Shown piece by piece: positions 5,574 through 41,495 of a DNA stretch of 64,000 nt. Origin of the DNA: a virus; the IMG/VR virus record IMGVR_UViG_3300045971_000356, positions 64,001-128,000 of that record. One strand, 5' to 3'. The notes beneath the pieces were generated by a model that had not been told where the DNA came from, ran no database searches, and saw only the letters and a program-made list of their open reading frames with translations. Within the stretch, counting starts at the first letter, position 1. Each line of letters begins with the position of its first letter. A program made the translations under genes and the position numbers.

Positions 5574-6203
5574 ATGGAAAGAAATTTCTTCCTAAATAAG
5601 TTATCATTTGCAGTTTTTTTAGTCTTGGCAGCAATACTGTATACGACAGTCTTCACTACCACGAGCAAGGCATTTAAAAACTTTGATACAAATAGTACGC
5701 CGCTAACGACGTTTAAGCTGATGGGCTTACTCGATGTTTACCGTGACGTAAAACAACAAGCTATAGGCATAATTGCACCTGATAAAAAAGTTGCTGTGCC
5801 CGCCAACGACCTTCAGTGTATGGCTGAAAACATTTACCACGAAGCAAATAACCAAAGCTATGCTGGTAAGATCGCCGTTGGACAAGTAGTGTTAAACAGG
5901 GTTGCAAAGCCCGATTATCCACGCACAATTTGCGGTGTTATCTACGAAGGTAGTCAGAACACGCAAACCTCACAATGTCAGTTTAGTTGGAGTTGCGGCC
6001 CACATAATCCTGTTGACAAAAATAGTGATGGCTGGCGCGAGAGCGTGAAAGCAGCCACTGAACTTTTGTCAAACAAAGGGCACATGATTGATATCACCGA
6101 GGGGGCCACTAACTACCACGCTGAATATGTTTCGCCGCCATGGGCGAAGAAATTAAAGTTTGTCGTTAAAATTGACCAACATTTATTTTATTCACGTAGT
6201 TAG
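5574..6203 (+). CDS. SleB-like cell wall hydrolase (Hydrolase_2)
   Basis: CMAENIYHEA, VVLNRV, CQFSW, GATNYHA and HLFY motifs; N-terminal hydrophobic helix; SD AGGAG. Confidence 0.9.
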   Translation: MERNFFLNKLSFAVFLVLAAILYTTVFTTTSKAFKNFDTNSTPLTTFKLMGLLDVYRDVKQQAIGIIAPDKKVAVPANDLQCMAENIYHEANNQSYAGKIAVGQVVLNRVAKPDYPRTICGVIYEGSQNTQTSQCQFSWSCGPHNPVDKNSDGWRESVKAATELLSNKGHMIDITEGATNYHAEYVSPPWAKKLKFVVKIDQHLFYSRS

Positions 6204-6794
6204 TATCTTGCATGTAAAATGTTTATGGTGAGATCTTATTCCGTTAGAAACTGAACACATTGATCCAGTGTCTAAATTGAAATCTCTGCATATTTGCGCT
6301 AAATTTTTAGTTACAATAACTTCCCCGCTTGGGGTTGTTACCTCATAATATCGTGCTTTACGCAATAAAAATTCAGGATCATTCCATTTATGTTTATTAC
6401 ATTGAACCATTTTATTTCGATATTCAGGATTTTGCCATTGCCTCTTACTTGCTTCGGATATCAACAATTTAGTTTGGGCAGCATGTGATGTATCTTTATG
6501 CGACCCACCTCGCGTGAGATTATATCCAGCAGTATGATGAGAATCAACAAACGTATTATACTCAGATATAAAATGTGGTTCCATTATGTTTAATGTGTGC
6601 CATTTATCGAGTGATTGATATAGGATGTCAAATTGAAAATTATTTATTCCATATTTTTGGATGGCTTGATATATTGCTTGCTTTCTCTTAGATCTTTTGT
6701 GATACAACATCCTCTTGGTATAGTTGCTGGTAAAACCAATGTAACTCTTATTGTTTAATAAGTTAGTTATCTTATAGATAGTATAAATATTCAT
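6192..6794 (-). CDS. GIY-YIG homing endonuclease
   Basis: TIYKITNLLNNKSYIG, GYNLTRGG and C-terminal HTH-like region. Confidence 0.88.
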   Translation of the reverse strand: MNIYTIYKITNLLNNKSYIGFTSNYTKRMLYHKRSKRKQAIYQAIQKYGINNFQFDILYQSLDKWHTLNIMEPHFISEYNTFVDSHHTAGYNLTRGGSHKDTSHAAQTKLLISEASKRQWQNPEYRNKMVQCNKHKWNDPEFLLRKARYYEVTTPSGEVIVTKNLAQICRDFNLDTGSMCSVSNGIRSHHKHFTCKILTT

Positions 6795-7538: not shown

Positions 7539-7801
7539 TGGGCAAGAACAAAAAAAGCAAAAAAGTGTTAGACAAAGTCGAAGAAGAGATTGAACAAATC
7601 ACTGACGCGATGGAAGAAGCAGACGGTGAGGGTTTTGATATTGGCGACGATGATTATGGCTTTATTTTGTCTAATGACGGAACCATTAAGGCGCTTATAC
7701 TGCCTCGTGAGTATTGCATAACACCTGAGTCGGTGTTAAAAATTTGCAAAGTGTTGGGAATTAAAGGGTTGGATGAACTGCAACCACAGTACATGCACTA
7801 A
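7538..7801 (+). CDS. Hypothetical acidic protein
   Basis: ORF coupled to the upstream stop (TAATG). Confidence 0.6.
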   Translation: MGKNKKSKKVLDKVEEEIEQITDAMEEADGEGFDIGDDDYGFILSNDGTIKALILPREYCITPESVLKICKVLGIKGLDELQPQYMH

Positions 7802-8253
7802 ACGATTTGCGCCTGGTCAACTAACGGCGCAAGTAAGTTGAAATTAGTTCTTGCTTGCTCGTTGGACGACACAATTTTGTCCAGCCCAACATCGTGCCCA
7901 CCACCAGCGACACGATTCCTTACGTTACCAGCAGCAATGTGGGCATCTGTGCTTTTAAGGTACAGCAGCACATTGTAACCGTTTGCTTTGGCGGCAGCGA
8001 TTTTATTCTTCTGTGCTTGCAAGTTGGACGCAGTGGTTGGATGAGCCACGTTTTCTTTGTTTTTAAACGCAGTAAGCAGCATTGGCTTTATTGCGGAAAT
8101 CGCAGCAGACACACCAAGTTGACCTTTGATAGCGTCAACATCAACTAACTGATACGTTGAAAATTCTGGGTGGTGCTCGATAAAATAGTTCTTGCCTGAG
8201 CCAGCGCCACCGATTACGATTACAAATGTGGGATTTAAGTCTGTTGCTTGCAT
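7798..8253 (-). CDS. Zeta-toxin-like P-loop kinase
   Basis: GGAGSGK Walker A, VDVD and RVAGGGHDV; ATAAATA just upstream. Confidence 0.7.
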   Translation of the reverse strand: MQATDLNPTFVIVIGGAGSGKNYFIEHHPEFSTYQLVDVDAIKGQLGVSAAISAIKPMLLTAFKNKENVAHPTTASNLQAQKNKIAAAKANGYNVLLYLKSTDAHIAAGNVRNRVAGGGHDVGLDKIVSSNEQARTNFNLLAPLVDQAQIV

Positions 8254-25177: not shown

Positions 25178-25585
25178 ATGGCATATGTTTCTGCAGAACT
25201 TAAAGCAAAATTGGCCCCAGCTGTCAAGGCAGTGCTGAAAAAGTACAAAATGAAGGGCTCGTTGGCTGTGCGTAACCACTCCACCTTAGTGTGTAACGTC
25301 AAGTCCGGTCCCATTGACATCATCGGCAACATGTTTGACAAAGCAGTCAATGAGCCCGGCACCCACTACAACCGCAACCCGGTTAAACCCACTTACATTG
25401 ACGTAAACCCGTACCACATTGCTAACAGCTACAGCGGCAAAGCGCAAAAGTTTTTGCTTGAACTGAAGGCTGCGATGGACAACGGCAACCACGATAACAG
25501 CGACATCCAAACTGACTACTTCGACGTTGGTTGGTTTCTAGATATAAATATCGGAAGTTGGGACCGCCCATATATGGTGGTTTAA
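25178..25585 (+). CDS. Conserved phage early protein
   Basis: DNSDIQTDYFDVGW...IG.WDRPY; SD GGAG. Confidence 0.75.
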   Translation: MAYVSAELKAKLAPAVKAVLKKYKMKGSLAVRNHSTLVCNVKSGPIDIIGNMFDKAVNEPGTHYNRNPVKPTYIDVNPYHIANSYSGKAQKFLLELKAAMDNGNHDNSDIQTDYFDVGWFLDINIGSWDRPYMVV

Positions 25586-26232
25586 CTTTTAAATTTGCAG
25601 TTGTCGCCATGATATCGATTTATCATATTATGCGACACTTCCTTTTTACAATGGATGCAACATACACGCATTTTAGGAACTCCTGAAAATACTGTCGTAT
25701 TTTTTGCAGATAATTTTTTGCTAACTTCAACGCTATGTTTTTTGTCGTAAAATGGATTATTGCTGCCAGCACACATTCCCTTTCTATTTGCAGATATTTT
25801 TTCTTTAGTCGCTGCTGAATGGCGTTTGCCAAACATGTTGTTTTTGCTGCCTTGTGCCCGGATACTCATATTTTGCTTCCATGTGTCAGTAAATGGATTT
25901 CTTTTGCGGCCAGTGTATGTTTTTGACAATTCTGCCCGCAAATAAGCGTATACTCTGCTAGTAACTTTGCCAGAAAATTTAAATGATCTCGACTGTTGCC
26001 ATGCCGCGTATACCATTTTATGTTTAACCGTAGCATCAACAAATCGGATTAGCAGTAAATGGCAAATAAAATGTTCGCGGAGAGTCAACGCAACCAGATT
26101 GCTGCTACTGTTTTTGCCGCCAAGGCTTTTAGGAATTATGTGGTGCCTATCGTATGGTTTTTCAAGGGTTCGCTCTTTGGCACGAGCAATAATATTTTCG
26201 TACCATTTTAGATATTTGTTTTGGGTAAACAT
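25582..26232 (-). CDS. HNH homing endonuclease with NUMOD3 motifs
   Basis: RHHIIPKSLGG, LTLREHFICH and MFGKRHS. Confidence 0.88.
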   Translation of the reverse strand: MFTQNKYLKWYENIIARAKERTLEKPYDRHHIIPKSLGGKNSSSNLVALTLREHFICHLLLIRFVDATVKHKMVYAAWQQSRSFKFSGKVTSRVYAYLRAELSKTYTGRKRNPFTDTWKQNMSIRAQGSKNNMFGKRHSAATKEKISANRKGMCAGSNNPFYDKKHSVEVSKKLSAKNTTVFSGVPKMRVCCIHCKKEVSHNMINRYHGDNCKFKS

Positions 26233-31207: not shown

Positions 31208-31951
31208 TTATTTCATACCTCGCAACCAGCCCAATGAAATAAGTTGGTTAGCGTCTGCTTTTGGCAGTAGTTTGTTTTCTAAATGATTGTGAACCCATAA
31301 TTTCTCTTGCTTGGCAACAGTAGGGCCAGCCCCGAATTTCCAACCACCAGCCAAATATGGCGAACACTCAGTGAAATGAATATATTTTCTATCGCCAGTG
31401 GCAGGATTATGAACCCAACGTTTTGTAATATTCGCGAGACTGTGTTTTTTAGATTTTTCTGGGCTGCACGGTGAGCGAACATTGTATAAAGGATTGTTTT
31501 CAGATGCCCGCAATTTTCTAGTAGCGGACATTTTAGCTTTTTCAACAGCAGTTCGCGGGATTCCTTTATTCCAAACAATTTGATTTTTTCGTATTTCACG
31601 CATTGCGATATAGTCGCGCGACGATATTTTATACCGCTGTTGATTTTTGTTTACTATAGATAACGCAGTGAATGCTATTTTCATTTTTGCTTTCGCAGTT
31701 CCCTCGACCATTTTGGGTAATAATTTATGGCAAACATAATGCTCGTGGGCAGTCAACTTAACTATATTGTTTTTGTCATTTGCGTTTCCCTCGACCCATC
31801 CCGCTGGCCCTTTTCTTTTACGATGTTTGAAGAAAGATTCAGGAATAATATGATGCCTTTCGTAATACGTAGTCTTGTCAATTACCCTTGACTTTGCGGT
31901 AAGCATAATGTTATTATACCAGTTAGAATATTTGTTGTTATTGAAGATCAT
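31208..31951 (-). CDS. HNH homing endonuclease
   Basis: YERHHIIPESF, LTAHEHYVCH, WNKG and WVHN...GW..G repeats. Confidence 0.85.
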   Translation of the reverse strand: MIFNNNKYSNWYNNIMLTAKSRVIDKTTYYERHHIIPESFFKHRKRKGPAGWVEGNANDKNNIVKLTAHEHYVCHKLLPKMVEGTAKAKMKIAFTALSIVNKNQQRYKISSRDYIAMREIRKNQIVWNKGIPRTAVEKAKMSATRKLRASENNPLYNVRSPCSPEKSKKHSLANITKRWVHNPATGDRKYIHFTECSPYLAGGWKFGAGPTVAKQEKLWVHNHLENKLLPKADANQLISLGWLRGMK

Positions 31952-33474: not shown

Positions 33475-33783
33475 ATGCAAATCATTTTCGGACAAGAAAT
33501 CGCTGAAGAAGTTCGTATGCGGCACATCGTGCTGGAACTCGAAACGTTTACGGTAAAAGACAGCGAGAAGACTGCGTACTGTGTTGTGCGTCCCGAAAGT
33601 ATCAACTTAACCGAAATGCCAGACATTCAACGTCTATGCCGGTTACATGAGGCGACAATAGAAGCATTAAAGCGCAACGACACAGAAACAGTGCTTGATG
33701 GAATTAGCCACCTTCGCGGGCATTTCAACGGCGAGTTGGATAGTTTTTATGATGTCATACAAAAAAGAATTACGGAAAAATAA
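33475..33783 (+). CDS. Hypothetical protein
   Basis: IVLELETF...L.GHFNGELDSFY. Confidence 0.65.
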   Translation: MQIIFGQEIAEEVRMRHIVLELETFTVKDSEKTAYCVVRPESINLTEMPDIQRLCRLHEATIEALKRNDTETVLDGISHLRGHFNGELDSFYDVIQKRITEK

Positions 33784-34853
33784 TGTCAACAAATATAAAA
33801 ACAGTAGCAGCAGATTTAACTGATTCATTTTTTAAAGATTTACAAAAGCAAATTGCTAAACAAGTCAATGATGACATCGCACACAAGTTAGCACACATTG
33901 ATATTAATCAAACAGTTCGTGAATGTGTTGACTATACAATTAAAAAGCAATTAACAGAGTTACGGTTCCCACCAAGCAGTATCCCTGGTGACGCTATTAA
34001 AATTGACACACTGCGTATTGTTGGTGAGAATGTTTATGGCGGGACACATAAATTATTCATGAGTACTGGTATTCAAGACACCGCGTCTGAGTGCCAGATT
34101 ACAATCTTAGATTCCGCTACTGTTATAGAGAATACGCTCATTGCTAAAGACGCAGAGATTAAAGGCGACCTAACAGTGGATGGAGTGTTGAACGTCACTG
34201 GAGAAATATCTCCTGACTCACCCTTTTACAAAGAGTTAGTTGAGCACTCAGCTGGGTTAGTTCGCTTGTCGTTAAACGACGATTTTTTTAAACAGTTTTC
34301 TAAAACAGTTTTTGAACAAATTAAAGAGCAAGGCATTGATTTAACTAAATTAACGCTCAACGGTTCTCCTATTATTACTGGAAGCGAGCTAAATCGTTCT
34401 ATTGTTGAATCAAGTTTACGCACTGTAGGTAACTTGAAAACTTTAGTTGTTGATGGTGACACAACCATCAACCAAGAAACACTTAACATTGGTATTCGCC
34501 GTGTTGGTATCAACACAACAGAGCCACAGGGTGCGTTTGAAGTTTGGGATGATGAGTGCGAGTTTTTAGTTAAGAAACAGAAGAAAGACACTATGATGTG
34601 GGGCACAACGCGACCTCACGATGTAGTGTTAAGCAGCAACAATAAAGACAACCTTGTGTTAAACTCTGACGGCAGCGTCACAGTGGCAAAAATTGCTGTG
34701 GGTAATACTACAATGTCAAGCAGCGATGCGCGGCCAGCGTATGCTGCAAAGCGTGGCACAATTGTCTGGAACACAAATGCTGATGTCGGACAACCCATCG
34801 GCTATGTTTGCGTTGGTGGAGCAAACTGGGGTTCTTTTGGTGAAATTAGTTAG
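33783..34853 (+). CDS. Putative virion structural protein
   Basis: SSLRTVGNL, RVGINTTEP and C-terminal GTIVWN...GYVC...W..FG. Confidence 0.6.
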   Translation: MSTNIKTVAADLTDSFFKDLQKQIAKQVNDDIAHKLAHIDINQTVRECVDYTIKKQLTELRFPPSSIPGDAIKIDTLRIVGENVYGGTHKLFMSTGIQDTASECQITILDSATVIENTLIAKDAEIKGDLTVDGVLNVTGEISPDSPFYKELVEHSAGLVRLSLNDDFFKQFSKTVFEQIKEQGIDLTKLTLNGSPIITGSELNRSIVESSLRTVGNLKTLVVDGDTTINQETLNIGIRRVGINTTEPQGAFEVWDDECEFLVKKQKKDTMMWGTTRPHDVVLSSNNKDNLVLNSDGSVTVAKIAVGNTTMSSSDARPAYAAKRGTIVWNTNADVGQPIGYVCVGGANWGSFGEIS

Positions 34854-35407
34854 TCTATAGTAAATTTATTGTTCTTTTGCCTATTGTCAGTTCGAGGGAT
34901 TACTTGTAAGTTAAATTCACAATGCAATCCACACACTAACTTGTGGTTTGATGGAACAATGTGGTCTACTTCGTGTGGCACACCAGTCTCAATAGATAAT
35001 TGACGAGCTTTGGTGTAAAACTCTAGTATTTTCTCTTTACTCGCCCACGGTGGCATAGATTTATCACGCTTTTTCCTTCGATTTACTATATAAGCACTCC
35101 ACTCAGCTTTACGCTGAAACACTGATTTACTGGGTGGCCGTTGGAATTTAGTGACGTTATATTTTCGCTTAGGTTTACTTATTTTTTCTGGCAATGGCCC
35201 GACAAAAGTTTTCAAAAATTCTCGTCTATTCTTGCCATATTCAATAAAATCTTCTTTAGTTTTATTTGGCTGATCTAATGTGCCGTGCCGCAATTTTGCT
35301 GAATATATCCCTTGGTGGCTTTTACAGCAGCAAGACATTCTCCATCCAGCAACGGGCCTATCGCATCCAGGTAGCTTGCAAAACTTAGGTTCAAATATAG
35401 TAGTCAT
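34850..35407 (-). CDS. HNH endonuclease
   Basis: EVDHIVP...VCGLH...NLQVI...N..K.N. Confidence 0.88.
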   Translation of the reverse strand: MTTIFEPKFCKLPGCDRPVAGWRMSCCCKSHQGIYSAKLRHGTLDQPNKTKEDFIEYGKNRREFLKTFVGPLPEKISKPKRKYNVTKFQRPPSKSVFQRKAEWSAYIVNRRKKRDKSMPPWASKEKILEFYTKARQLSIETGVPHEVDHIVPSNHKLVCGLHCEFNLQVIPRTDNRQKNNKFTID

Positions 35408-36068: not shown

Positions 36069-36097
36069 TTGACAGTCAAGCAATTTGGTGCTATAAT
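36069..36097 (+). promoter_or_regulatory. Early promoter of the TTGACAGTCAAGC type
   Basis: TTGACA-17-TATAAT. Confidence 0.85.
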
Positions 36098-36123
36098 ACT
36101 CGCATAGCAACAAGGAGTTTGTC

Positions 36124-36333
36124 ATGGGTTACAAAGCAGTTCGTGAAGTGGATAACATGCGTGACACTTACGGCTTCCGTCAGGGACTTGAAGGCCCGTT
36201 TTCATTCTCTGGGCGAGTGCTGTATTACGATACTCGCGAAGGAAAATATTATGACCCGCGGACTGATTGGTATATTGAACAGGACGAGATGAACGCGATC
36301 AACCAGCGTTTGACTGATTTACTTGCTTCTTAG
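36124..36333 (+). CDS. Conserved small early protein
   Basis: GLEGPF...GRVLYYD..EGKYYDP.TD.Y. Confidence 0.75.
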   Translation: MGYKAVREVDNMRDTYGFRQGLEGPFSFSGRVLYYDTREGKYYDPRTDWYIEQDEMNAINQRLTDLLAS

Positions 36334-36889
36334 CAGCCATGGTGGCGCGGAAAGATTCTAATTTTTTCTGCTTTTGCTCTTCAGATTGTGTATAACCTTT
36401 CTTTTTTGGTTTACCCAAATGCGCTGCGGCTATTTTGGCTTTAGTTTCTTCCGTATGGAACTCTGGGCACCCAGCAGGTTTCTTCCTTCCTTTGAATTTC
36501 TCACTGAGGAACAGTTTTTGCTCGGCAGAGCATGGTTTCATAATTTGGGTAGCCCTTGCTGCTTTAATTTTTTCCCTTGTCTCAGGTGTGTGCGTCCGGC
36601 CATACATTCCGTTTTTTGCCCCTTTAAGGCAATTGCCGTCCCCGCCGTCAGTTTGGTTTTGTAAAATTCCAGTGCCTAAATCTTTTCTACCATATTTTGC
36701 GATAAGTTCCTTTTCCATGGACTTAGCAGTATCGTCACTTAGTCCTTCAGCTAAAATTACAATTCTGGCTGTATCCGCAGGCAAATGTATGCGGTGTCTG
36801 CCAGACCAGGCTCGACGGCCTTTGCCTTTTCCAATATAATACGGTGATCCGTCTTCGCGTAAATAAGCGTAAGTGTAATAGTTGTCCAT
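36299..36889 (-). CDS. GIY-YIG homing endonuclease with NUMOD3
   Basis: YTYAYLREDGSPYYIGKG, NQTDGGDG and MYGRTHTPET. Confidence 0.88.
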   Translation of the reverse strand: MDNYYTYAYLREDGSPYYIGKGKGRRAWSGRHRIHLPADTARIVILAEGLSDDTAKSMEKELIAKYGRKDLGTGILQNQTDGGDGNCLKGAKNGMYGRTHTPETREKIKAARATQIMKPCSAEQKLFLSEKFKGRKKPAGCPEFHTEETKAKIAAAHLGKPKKKGYTQSEEQKQKKLESFRATMAAKKQVNQSNAG

Positions 36890-36900
36890 ACTTTATTTAT

Positions 36901-36967
36901 CCGAGCACTGACTTTTATGTTTTTATTTGCCGTTCACCAGCAATTAGCTGATATTCTTGCGAAATAG
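36901..36967 (+). pseudogene. Displaced original 3' end of gene 36124
   Basis: Translates PSTDFYV...AVHQQLADILAK*, matching PRTDWYI...AINQRLTDLLAS*. Confidence 0.75.
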
Positions 36968-37221
36968 TCAAGGATTTTGAGCAGATTCGCTTGACTTCGC
37001 CACGATTCTGCGCTATAATACTCGCATAGCACAAAGGAGTTCACCATGTTCCCACACTTTATTGCCTCGAAAAATGTCAATAATCAGCATGTAGTTCTGT
37101 GGCAACTTGGTGATTATCACTACGAAATCGAGCATACTGCTCACGCAAAACCCACAGTGGATTTGCCCAATACGCCGAGTGAAGATGCGGTGAAACTGTT
37201 TAACGAAACTGAAGTTTTTGC

Positions 37222-37250
37222 TTGACAGTCAAGCATTTTGGCTGTATAAT
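37222..37250 (+). promoter_or_regulatory. Early promoter of the TTGACAGTCAAGC type
   Basis: TTGACA-17-TATAAT. Confidence 0.85.
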
Positions 37251-37280
37251 ACATACATAGCAAAGCAAATAGGAGTTTTT

Positions 37281-37571
37281 ATGTCGTACGTTATTATGAA
37301 TGTTGGTACAGAAACTTTGTATTATGTGCGTGGCCAATACGGTTACAAGCACTACCGTACAGAGCAAGGTGCGAAGGCAATGGCCACCCGTCTCAACAAG
37401 CAATACGGCGACACAAAACAGTGGGTGACAATGTCAGCAGCTGAGTTCGACGAAAAGCACAACCCAATGGTTGAAACGACGAACATCATGAGTGGCAAGA
37501 CTGTGATGATCCGCAAGTCCGAAAAAGGCGGTTGCTGCGATCCAGGAACTGAGCGTTATTGGTCTTGCTGA
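37281..37571 (+). CDS. Conserved small early protein
   Basis: NIMSGK...CCDP.TE.YWS; SD AGGAG. Confidence 0.75.
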   Translation: MSYVIMNVGTETLYYVRGQYGYKHYRTEQGAKAMATRLNKQYGDTKQWVTMSAAEFDEKHNPMVETTNIMSGKTVMIRKSEKGGCCDPGTERYWSC

Positions 37572-38155
37572 TTTTTAACCATAATGAAAGTGCCATCTGG
37601 CAGATATTTTCGTTTAGCACCGCGTTTAGATGCTTTCATTTTAGCAACCATTTCAGGAGTTCGCGGAATGCCACGCTTTGCATCAGCCCTACGTTTAACA
37701 TCGTCGGCGGGCATTTTCCATCCAGACAATCGTTTCTTTTCCTCACGTGCAAGTGCGGTACGACTTTGCTTTTGTTTCCATTCCTTACTTTTAGGTTGTG
37801 ACGCATGCCACCGCAGCAAATCTAATACTTTTTGCGATGGATTTTTTGGTGCTAAAAAGTGTGAGCCTCCGCCATTATGCCGATTAATCCAATCTGTTCT
37901 TGACGCAGCATTTAACCGTCGAAGAACTTTATTTTCCCAACGCAGCGCGGCTGCTCCGTCAGTAAATATTTTTCGAACTTCAGCAGTAAATGAGTTGACA
38001 CCATAGTTGTCAATGAGTGCTTTTACTATGGGAGATGAGGAAAAATAAGTGGTCCATAAATCAGTTGGGGAACAATGTTTTGCAAACCGAACTCCATAAT
38101 AATGCATTTTGGTAGGTTTATGAAACAGGTGATAACTAAAAGGAATAGTTGACAT
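37556..38155 (-). CDS. GIY-YIG-type homing endonuclease
   Basis: PFSYHL...YYGVR, YFSSS, WE.KVL and WIN motifs. Confidence 0.8.
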   Translation of the reverse strand: MSTIPFSYHLFHKPTKMHYYGVRFAKHCSPTDLWTTYFSSSPIVKALIDNYGVNSFTAEVRKIFTDGAAALRWENKVLRRLNAASRTDWINRHNGGGSHFLAPKNPSQKVLDLLRWHASQPKSKEWKQKQSRTALAREEKKRLSGWKMPADDVKRRADAKRGIPRTPEMVAKMKASKRGAKRKYLPDGTFIMVKNQQDQ

Positions 38156-38188: not shown

Positions 38189-38206
38189 ACTTATTGGTCA
38201 ATGTAA
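38189..38206 (+). pseudogene. Displaced original 3' end of gene 37281
   Basis: ACT TAT TGG TCA ATG TAA = TYWSM*, versus current RYWSC*. Confidence 0.65.
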
Positions 38207-40467: not shown

Positions 40468-40590
40468 ATGTCTTGTAAACTTCATTCATTCATTCATTCA
40501 TTCATTCATTCATTCATTCATTCATTCATTCATTCATTCATTCATTCATTCATTCATTCATTCATTCAATCAATCATCACCGCAGTCTCT
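40468..40590 (+). pseudogene. Vestigial original 5' end of nadV containing the microsatellite
   Basis: Without the repeat it reads MSCKL-QSIITAV, versus NadV MSKLDSIILNV; same hairpin and SD. Confidence 0.6.
40481..40568 (+). repeat. (TTCA)22 perfect microsatellite followed by (ATCA)2
   Basis: Directly visible. Confidence 0.97.
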
Positions 40591-41495
40591 AATTTAGAGA
40601 TAATGTCCTCATTGAACCGAATTCGCAATAACTTAAATCCGTTTGTTGCAGCATATTCTGCTTTTATGTTGTCTCTTATCTGGGTCAACGCCAATTGATC
40701 AACTCCCGAAATAAGTTTCGAAAAGGATATTGGTCTAAAATGATATTCACCGTCAAACTCTATCAAGAGATTCTGATTTGGAATAAAGAAATCGTATTTA
40801 AGACGGCCTTTTTTAGATTTGTAATATAAGTTATTAAATGTTTTTTGATATTCGAAGTGTATATTATGTTTAACCAACCAGTTTTTAACAATAACTTCTC
40901 CCTTAGACGGATTAGAATTAGAGCAAGATGGGCAACCCACTCCGTTAGACCAATGATTTACCGGAGTTACAGAAAAATCACCATGTATGCTGCAAGTCAC
41001 ATTAACTTTTTTATGAGCATTTACATAAATTACATTATTGTAGGAATATTGACCATTATGAGTTTTGTTGGCCTTCTCTATAAATCTGCTATTTCCAAGT
41101 TGAGTTTTATTAGCAGCAATATCTTTACCACAAAGAGGACATCCGGATTTATTTGTAATGTGTCCAATTTTGGTCTGGGTAAATTCGCCATGTATAGGAC
41201 ATATGATTATTAATTTCTTAGCTGATATATCAACGAGAGAATAATCATATTTGTTATTATGGATTTTATGGCCGTTGTTTATAAATCTACTAAGATTTTC
41301 CTCTTTAGTAAAACCGCGGCCGCTACATTTTAGACAACCATAACCGGAAAGATGGTTGTTCGGAGTAATCAAGAAGTCGCCATGCTCATTGCATGTAACG
41401 ATTACCTTGGTTTTAGCTGTGCTATACAATACTTTTGAATAATCAAACTTATTGCCATGCACTTTTTGAAATTTTGATATGACTGCTTGACACAT
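40566..41495 (-). CDS. Homing endonuclease (DUF723-like CxxHG/CxxC repeats plus Vsr/PD-(D/E)XK-like domain)
   Basis: Three C..HG.F...GC..C repeats; YDFFIP...IEFDGEYH. Confidence 0.85.
   Translation of the reverse strand: MCQAVISKFQKVHGNKFDYSKVLYSTAKTKVIVTCNEHGDFLITPNNHLSGYGCLKCSGRGFTKEENLSRFINNGHKIHNNKYDYSLVDISAKKLIIICPIHGEFTQTKIGHITNKSGCPLCGKDIAANKTQLGNSRFIEKANKTHNGQYSYNNVIYVNAHKKVNVTCSIHGDFSVTPVNHWSNGVGCPSCSNSNPSKGEVIVKNWLVKHNIHFEYQKTFNNLYYKSKKGRLKYDFFIPNQNLLIEFDGEYHFRPISFSKLISGVDQLALTQIRDNIKAEYAATNGFKLLRIRFNEDIISKLETAVMID

Follow-up and report, generated by a model that had tools for sequence, protein, structure and literature searches.

The small gene, the antisense endonuclease gene and the stranded gene end

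The window studied here is the whole 64,000-nt stretch of viral DNA that was analyzed. On its plus strand, a small gene (36124-36333) overlaps by 35 nt with an ORF on the opposite strand (36299-36889) that encodes a homing endonuclease, as the first-pass annotation had already stated; both the coordinates and the overlap were borne out. Just past the start codon of the endonuclease, at 36901-36967, a remnant of a gene end could be identified that is read in two frames: P-S-T-D-F-Y-V (36901-36921) is followed, after a +1 frame shift, by 12 codons and a stop codon (36929-36967). The remnant comprises 67 nt, compared to 78 nt for the corresponding part of the live gene and for that of an endonuclease-free allele. 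When it was aligned to this allele (L014), 18 nt were absent from the remnant and were replaced by 7 unrelated nt. The features of the locus are given below, with reference to L014 and to the endonuclease-bearing relative L003.

36069-36097, plus strand: sigma-70-like promoter of the small gene (TTGACA-17-TATAAT, 12/12 matches), common to L014 and L003
36124-36333, plus strand: hybrid small gene of 69 amino acids, KVP40.0154 / phrog_13298 family (ORF list, homologs, PHROG match with E 3.5e-11)
36124-36236, plus strand: recipient-type 5' part of the gene, 95% identical to L014 versus 73% to L003; informative sites 27:2 for L014
36243-36333, plus strand: cassette-borne replacement gene end with a Trp codon at 36268-36270, closer to L003 than to L014; informative sites 20:6 for L003
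36299-36889, minus strand: intact free-standing GIY-YIG / NUMOD3 homing endonuclease gene, 196 amino acids (NUMOD3, phrog_314, motifs, fold)
36890-36900, minus strand: short leader in front of the endonuclease gene, containing a TAAATA that resembles a T4 late promoter (TATTTA on the plus strand in 8/8 lineages, 4-5 nt from the start codon)
36901-36921, plus strand: fossil target head P-S-T-D-F-Y-V, part of the cassette, found in 8/8 endonuclease-bearing lineages
36922-36928, no strand: 7-nt filler in place of 18 nt (six codons) of the normal gene end, from the alignment to L014; the match to L003 stops at 36926 and that to L014 begins at 36933
36929-36967, plus strand: the recipient's own displaced gene end, 12 codons and stop, matching L014 at 35/39 positions and without a mismatch in the last 25 nt
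36968-37045, plus strand: native spacer and promoter of the next gene (36991-37019, 11/12 matches), continuing the 91% match to L014

Protein searches with the small gene product identified distant homologs of the KVP40.0154 type, annotated as hypothetical proteins, in KVP40-like T4-type vibriophages. The family corresponds to phrog_13298, a PHROG entry without assigned function, and comprises 291 clusters; two collections contain over 570 of its loci each. In the alignment of the family the core is invariant, whereas the last ~25 residues are more variable, and all invariant residues are kept by the product of 36124-36333 (family alignment A1). In a related contig, a rIIB-like gene is located directly upstream of the small gene. 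With megablast and blastn, no close DNA relatives of the region were found among deposited phage genomes. Every locus compared here stems from a metagenome assembly, and the small-gene loci compared are the best 160 of ~1,100 metagenomic loci.

Near-identical long early-promoter blocks were observed at 36069-36113, 36991-37035 and 37219-37263, all consisting of TTGACA-17-TATAAT and a conserved leader up to the ribosome-binding site. In the third of these, the -35 box is surrounded by a 7-bp inverted repeat (37219-37235). Such blocks were also found in L003 and L014, and recombination between phages could take place at them.

The endonuclease matched NUMOD3 in two stretches (E 8.8e-9, 35.6 bits versus a Pfam cut-off of 20.4) and the PHROG 'homing endonuclease' entry phrog_314 (E 2.6e-13). 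The Pfam GIY-YIG model gave no match at E 0.01, and in a sequence search of solved structures the motif stretch aligned to a solved GIY-YIG protein at E 0.37 only. Residues Y5, Y7, Y17-Y18-I19-G20, R26, E59 and N78, which are the hallmark and catalytic residues of GIY-YIG enzymes, are invariant in 47 relatives. An AlphaFold2 model of the protein had a mean pLDDT of 78.5, and the 13 best Foldseek matches of this model were all GIY-YIG domains (UvrC, PD-T4-3), with E-values of 0.04-0.6 and a probability of up to 0.98. Structural comparison with VIA-align resulted in a Z-score of 7.5 (rmsd 2.7, 69 residues aligned, 35% identity), and of 6.1 to UvrC. Since these fold scores are moderate and the Pfam GIY-YIG model did not match, the assignment to the GIY-YIG group rests on the motifs and the fold together. 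Combining the intact ORF, the invariant catalytic residues and the matches of the predicted fold, the enzyme looks intact.

Comparison with endonuclease-free and endonuclease-bearing alleles

The endonuclease-free allele L014 is represented by six contigs from six samples. The proteins closest to the small gene product (P0004-P0007, 83-84% identity) have a 5' part nearly identical to that of the window, and their endings are like the remnant and unlike the live end. For one of them, P0005, the coding contigs stem from six samples, and in all of these the next gene directly follows the small gene. At 36259-36333, identity is 68% to L014 and 83% to the endonuclease-bearing L003. Between 36236 and 36243, the informative sites flip from 27:2 in favor of L014 to 20:6 in favor of L003 (Fisher p 7e-8), and this switch point falls just before the Y-Y-D-P codons.

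On the other side of the endonuclease gene, the region 36933-37035, which contains the old end, the spacer and the next promoter, matches L014 at 91% (E 3e-37), and L003 gives no match. The last 39 nt of the remnant are identical to L014 at 35/39 positions, compared to 25/39 for the window's own live end. Between the two flanks that match L014, L014 itself has nothing in place of the cassette. From this identity pattern and the switch of the informative sites it is concluded that a foreign gene end and the endonuclease gene were placed into an L014-like genome; judged by these alignments, the window is a mosaic in which an endonuclease-free genome similar to L014 is combined with a cassette. 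As the 18 nt missing from the window are present in L014, L014 cannot be derived from a state like that of the window.

The alignments place the left junction at 36236-36243 and the right junction at ~36927-36945, and indicate that the recipient's last 39 nt, the native spacer and the promoter survive behind the cassette. An exact right crossover inside the fossil was considered, as the first 15 nt of the 39-nt piece contain 4/15 mismatches to L014 compared to 7/91 (p 0.048); the support for this finer placement is weak, and therefore the right junction is stated as an interval only. No close donor of the cassette was found, the best having 88% protein identity, and at the right junction no clean homology was found with L003, the nearest known donor.

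The first-pass annotation had proposed that the element inserted near the conserved YYDP codons and carried its own version of the gene end, and had named an alignment with endonuclease-free alleles as the check. In this alignment L014 matches both flanks and lacks the cassette. The left switch just before Y-Y-D-P agrees with the proposed place of insertion and, together with the linkage of the end to the endonuclease in eight lineages (see below), with a gene end brought in by the element. That the displaced original end survives downstream could be confirmed for 36929-36967, but not for the head at 36901-36921, which is cassette-borne.

In every context fetched, relatives of the endonuclease (60-88% identity) were antisense and overlapped the 3' end of a homolog of the small gene. 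Endonuclease-bearing loci (14 in total) were obtained from eight lineages, i.e., the window, L003, L020, L021/22, L023-25, L026, L027 and L189/190; the sample is small, and most of the lineages were found by searching with the endonuclease. The antisense endonuclease ORF and the gene end overlap tail to tail by 12-35 nt in 8/8 lineages. As this part of the end lies inside the endonuclease ORF, the endonuclease gene cannot move without the gene end. Among 129 distinct alleles from the best 160 of ~1,100 loci, the allele with the nearest 5' part was endonuclease-free for all eight lineages, and the nearest gene end was, again for all eight, another endonuclease-linked end. Therefore, it is the gene end that moves together with the endonuclease, and not the 5' part. 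The endonuclease-free alleles, the breakpoint and the linkage of the end show that the relatives are polymorphic for the presence of the endonuclease at one site and that its flank is co-converted.

In the motif P-x-x-D-W, Trp was found at 14/14 endonuclease-bearing loci, and 118 endonuclease-free loci with enough flank, from the best 160 of ~1,100, are of the Phe type. When the 17 conserved codons of the eight lineages were compared with those of 97 distinct endonuclease-free alleles from the same best 160 of ~1,100 loci, the only fixed difference was the change from TTY to TGG at 36268-36270. Trp-type alleles with neither endonuclease nor fossil were identified in L188 (1501-1719), L191 (1501-1722) and the P0118 context, which rules out Trp as a marker of the endonuclease alone. 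These alleles are possibly naturally resistant or products of endonuclease loss, and they bear on the life cycle of the element. The Trp codon may also simply hitch-hike from a founder.

The gene end had previously been described as recoded. It indeed differs by a fixed Phe-to-Trp change, but the term is too strong, since the new end is a diverged natural allele. It had also been argued that the same duplication in endonuclease-free relatives would speak against the proposed insertion. A second P..D[FW][YF][VIL] motif was looked for within 1.2 kb downstream and was found at 14/14 endonuclease-bearing loci and at 0/120 endonuclease-free loci (best 160 of ~1,100), so the proposal was not refuted in this way.

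The fossil target head

Beyond the start codon of the endonuclease, a short TAAATA leader and then 21 nt reading P-x-T-D-F-Y-V were found in 8/8 lineages. The head in the window is identical to that of L003 at 18/21 positions, including a rare Ser codon, and to the live codons of L014 at 15/21. The continuous match of the window to L003 extends to 36926. Its closer similarity to L003 and this continuous match indicate that the head came with the cassette. The possibility that the whole remnant is the recipient's old end is ruled out for the head, as it is L003-like and present in all eight lineages.

The head is located outside any conserved ORF, yet it shows coding-like evolution. Its mean pairwise identity is 0.89 at codon positions 1 and 2 and 0.43 at position 3, the latter being equal to that of the third positions of the endonuclease gene itself (0.43). 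All positions that are invariant in the live target are kept in every head.

The gap of six codons after F-Y-V occurs at the same place in L026 and L021, which suggests that it is an old feature of the cassette and makes local decay a doubtful explanation. Thus, of the 'internal deletion' reported in the first-pass annotation, the gap of 18 nt was found, but it probably was built into the cassette and did not arise by later decay at this locus. The most complete fossil was observed in L026 (1-198, reverse strand), where P-Q-T-D-F-Y-V is followed by another 15 in-frame codons and a stop. In the same contig, the -35 box of the next promoter lies inside old fossil codons. By eye, a promoter-like TTGACA facing the next gene could be seen ~5-17 nt after the head in six lineages. 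An origin of this outward -35 box from the R-L-T codons of the old end, considered for the other cassettes, is doubtful because the positions differ between lineages.

Several candidate reasons for the conservation of the head can be named. It might be a putative operator of the I-TevI type, it might be the right homology arm, or it might be refreshed repeatedly from recipients, which was not the case in the window's own event. TAAATA is a putative late promoter, which would give a near-leaderless transcript. In the autorepression of I-TevI, the operator is identical to the homing site at 15/20 positions and overlaps a late promoter (PMC2988022). Like this operator, the target-like head lies directly upstream of the endonuclease ORF and beside a late-promoter-like element, and the rest of the target is absent. 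A head of this kind, with the remainder of the target missing, could allow binding but no cleavage. Unlike I-TevI, which is intron-encoded, the endonuclease described here is free-standing, and the head could equally be a homology arm.

From these sequence features a tentative model can be put forward, which we consider plausible but somewhat more likely to fail than to hold. The head would be an uncleavable copy of the element's own target, kept because the endonuclease reads the same invariant positions in it as in the live target. It would act as an operator, as in I-TevI, as the right homology arm or as both, and the Phe-to-Trp codon would be the whole immunity determinant. If true, this would be a free-standing endonuclease with a self-contained target, immunity and operator module.

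Origin of the arrangement and comparison with known systems

The locus is very probably best described as a homing-derived mosaic, with a free-standing GIY-YIG homing endonuclease cassette located at the 3' end of a small gene that is conserved in phages. This cassette starts with the last ~29 codons of the gene, of the Trp type, whose final codons overlap the 3' end of the endonuclease gene on the other strand. It is completed by the endonuclease gene, the short TAAATA leader and the 21-nt Phe-type target fossil.

In homing of the T4 type, a double-strand break is made and widened by exonucleases, after which a strand invades the donor and the donor is copied; the flanks are co-converted (PMC2988022). 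In the proposed course of events, the enzyme would cut the Phe-type gene of the recipient during a mixed infection, between the Y-Y-D-P codons and the six missing codons. Exonucleases would widen the break, and the donor's cassette would be copied during repair. On the left, the broken end would invade the donor in the conserved Y-Y-D region, which would provide the left homology, and the right end would be captured at the fossil or at adjacent microhomology on the right. With left invasion at Y-Y-D and right capture at or near the fossil, the recipient would lose the first part of its own end and keep the last 39 nt. The Trp codon is predicted from the sequence to protect the live copy from the enzyme, and the fossil copy would be protected by the absence of flanking sequence.

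Ordinary homologous recombination between co-infecting phages via the repeated early promoters, with an endonuclease that made no break and moved along as a passive passenger, is an improbable alternative. The near-identical promoter repeats do flank these genes and are possible crossover points, and nuclease genes are known at the boundaries of genetic exchange in phages (PMC10448857). However, both junctions are located inside the small-gene sequence and outside the promoters, and the tight unit of gene end, endonuclease and fossil target recurs on eight backgrounds. The fixed Phe-to-Trp change and the conserved target-like fossil are moreover what an active site-specific enzyme predicts.

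Still less probable is an artifact in which reads from endonuclease-bearing and endonuclease-free strains were joined at conserved words during assembly. The sequences joined at the right junction (36922-36933) have no word in common in the known parents, so this junction would not result from a chimera of the assembly graph, and the same architecture, with a longer fossil, was found in the independent assemblies L026 and L021. What gives this explanation some weight is that the window is part of a metagenome-assembled, uncultivated viral contig of 166 kb and that the left switch falls in a conserved stretch, but even a chimera on the left side would leave the displaced end in place. The least probable of all is a local tandem duplication of the 3' end of the gene, with insertion of the endonuclease between the copies and divergence in place. 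It would account for the two gene-end copies that flank the endonuclease. It is contradicted by the similarities of these copies, because divergence in place cannot make the live copy resemble the endonuclease-linked copy of another phage: identity of the live end is 68% with the sister allele L014 but 83% with the L003 end, which is on a different background, while the 39 nt of the remnant match L014 at 90%. In addition, a second gene-end motif was present at 0/120 endonuclease-free loci (best 160 of ~1,100).

An arrangement corresponding to that of the homing-derived mosaic is known for the mORFs of fungal mitochondria, described for atp6 of Allomyces macrogynus and for atp6, atp9, cox2 and nad3 of Glomus (PMC3630166). 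As in mORFs, the 3' part of the host gene is the site of an endonuclease ORF that brings along a foreign C-terminal coding segment, with which the gene is completed, and the native C-terminal segment is found downstream, where in mORFs it is not expressed. For mORFs, the identity to an endonuclease-free relative is 91-98% for the native and 64-81% for the inserted segment (PMC3630166); here it is 90% for the native segment, calculated for the last 39 nt only, and 68% for the inserted one. Unlike the mORF systems, the host is a phage, and the endonuclease gene is antisense and tail to tail with the host gene, whereas in mORFs it lies downstream and often in phase. Indeed, co-orientation of the endonuclease ORF with the host gene, a feature of mORFs, was found in none of the eight lineages. 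A further difference is that the stranded piece is a chimera of the cassette fossil and the recipient's last 39 nt, with a fossil head conserved in eight diverged cassettes.

The locus also resembles the intronless homing of SegF, SegG and MobE in T-even phages, with a free-standing GIY-YIG gene in a T4-like genome that is variably present and whose flanks are co-converted (PMC2988022). Like the Seg and Mob genes, the endonuclease gene adjoins or overlaps the gene it presumably targets and overlaps neighboring ORFs (PMC2988022). In the reviewed T4 cases, by contrast, the recipient sequence is replaced without a leftover duplicate, and most T4 seg genes are co-oriented with their neighbors, unlike the antisense gene described here (PMC2988022).

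The mobE element in nrdA of Aeh1 and the T4 gene 60 / mobA element reportedly bring the signals or sequence by which the gene they invade stays functional although no splicing takes place. In these cases the gene is said to be split into two products or ribosomal bypass to be forced. Unlike this, a single product is kept here by means of the new end. In the part of the literature that was covered, no description of a gene-end-replacing architecture in phages was found. Thus, an event that had been described for fungal mitochondria is seen here in clean form in a phage, with the architecture of mORFs and, probably, the process of Seg/Mob intronless homing.

A second gene-end replacement could be identified in the window. 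The gene at 37281-37571 overlaps by 16 nt with an antisense SegE-like GIY-YIG gene (37556-38155). At 38189-38206, a stranded end of 18 nt (T-Y-W-S-M-stop) was found that agrees with the end of the L014 allele. This SegE-like endonuclease is absent from both L014 and L003.

The window is unusually rich in homing-endonuclease genes. An HNH-type gene on the minus strand (34850-35407; phrog_1035 endonuclease VII, E 1.7e-6) is antisense to the 356-amino acid gene 33783-34853 on the plus strand and overlaps its end by 4 nt. The latter gene corresponds in length and position to the rIIB-like gene of L020, where no endonuclease is present. Further antisense nuclease-like genes were observed on the minus strand of this plus-strand genome at 6192-6794, 25582-26232, 31208-31951 and 40566-41495. 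Their types are GIY-YIG (E 1.5e-6), HNH with NUMOD3, a weak AHH match and a CapR/DUF723 zinc-finger protein, the last being typical of T5orf172-type endonucleases. A 151-amino acid ORF at 7798-8253 on the minus strand, with Zeta-toxin / AAA_33 kinase-like Pfam matches (E 3.7e-7), is unrelated to the cassette.

The locus provides matched invaded and naive alleles, with both junctions mapped within about 10 nt, and in addition eight diverged copies of the cassette. The allele pair and the eight cassettes predict, at codon level, that the enzyme targets the D-F-Y-V codons; they further predict that immunity is due to a change of one codon and that a fossil target is conserved at the start of the endonuclease gene. 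Gene-end replacement of the mORF kind also operates in T4-like phages. As at least two cases were found in the window, it is maybe a common route by which endonuclease genes enter phage genes without an intron or intein. It explains local mosaicism, small orphan ORFs and pseudo-ends in the annotation of phage genomes.
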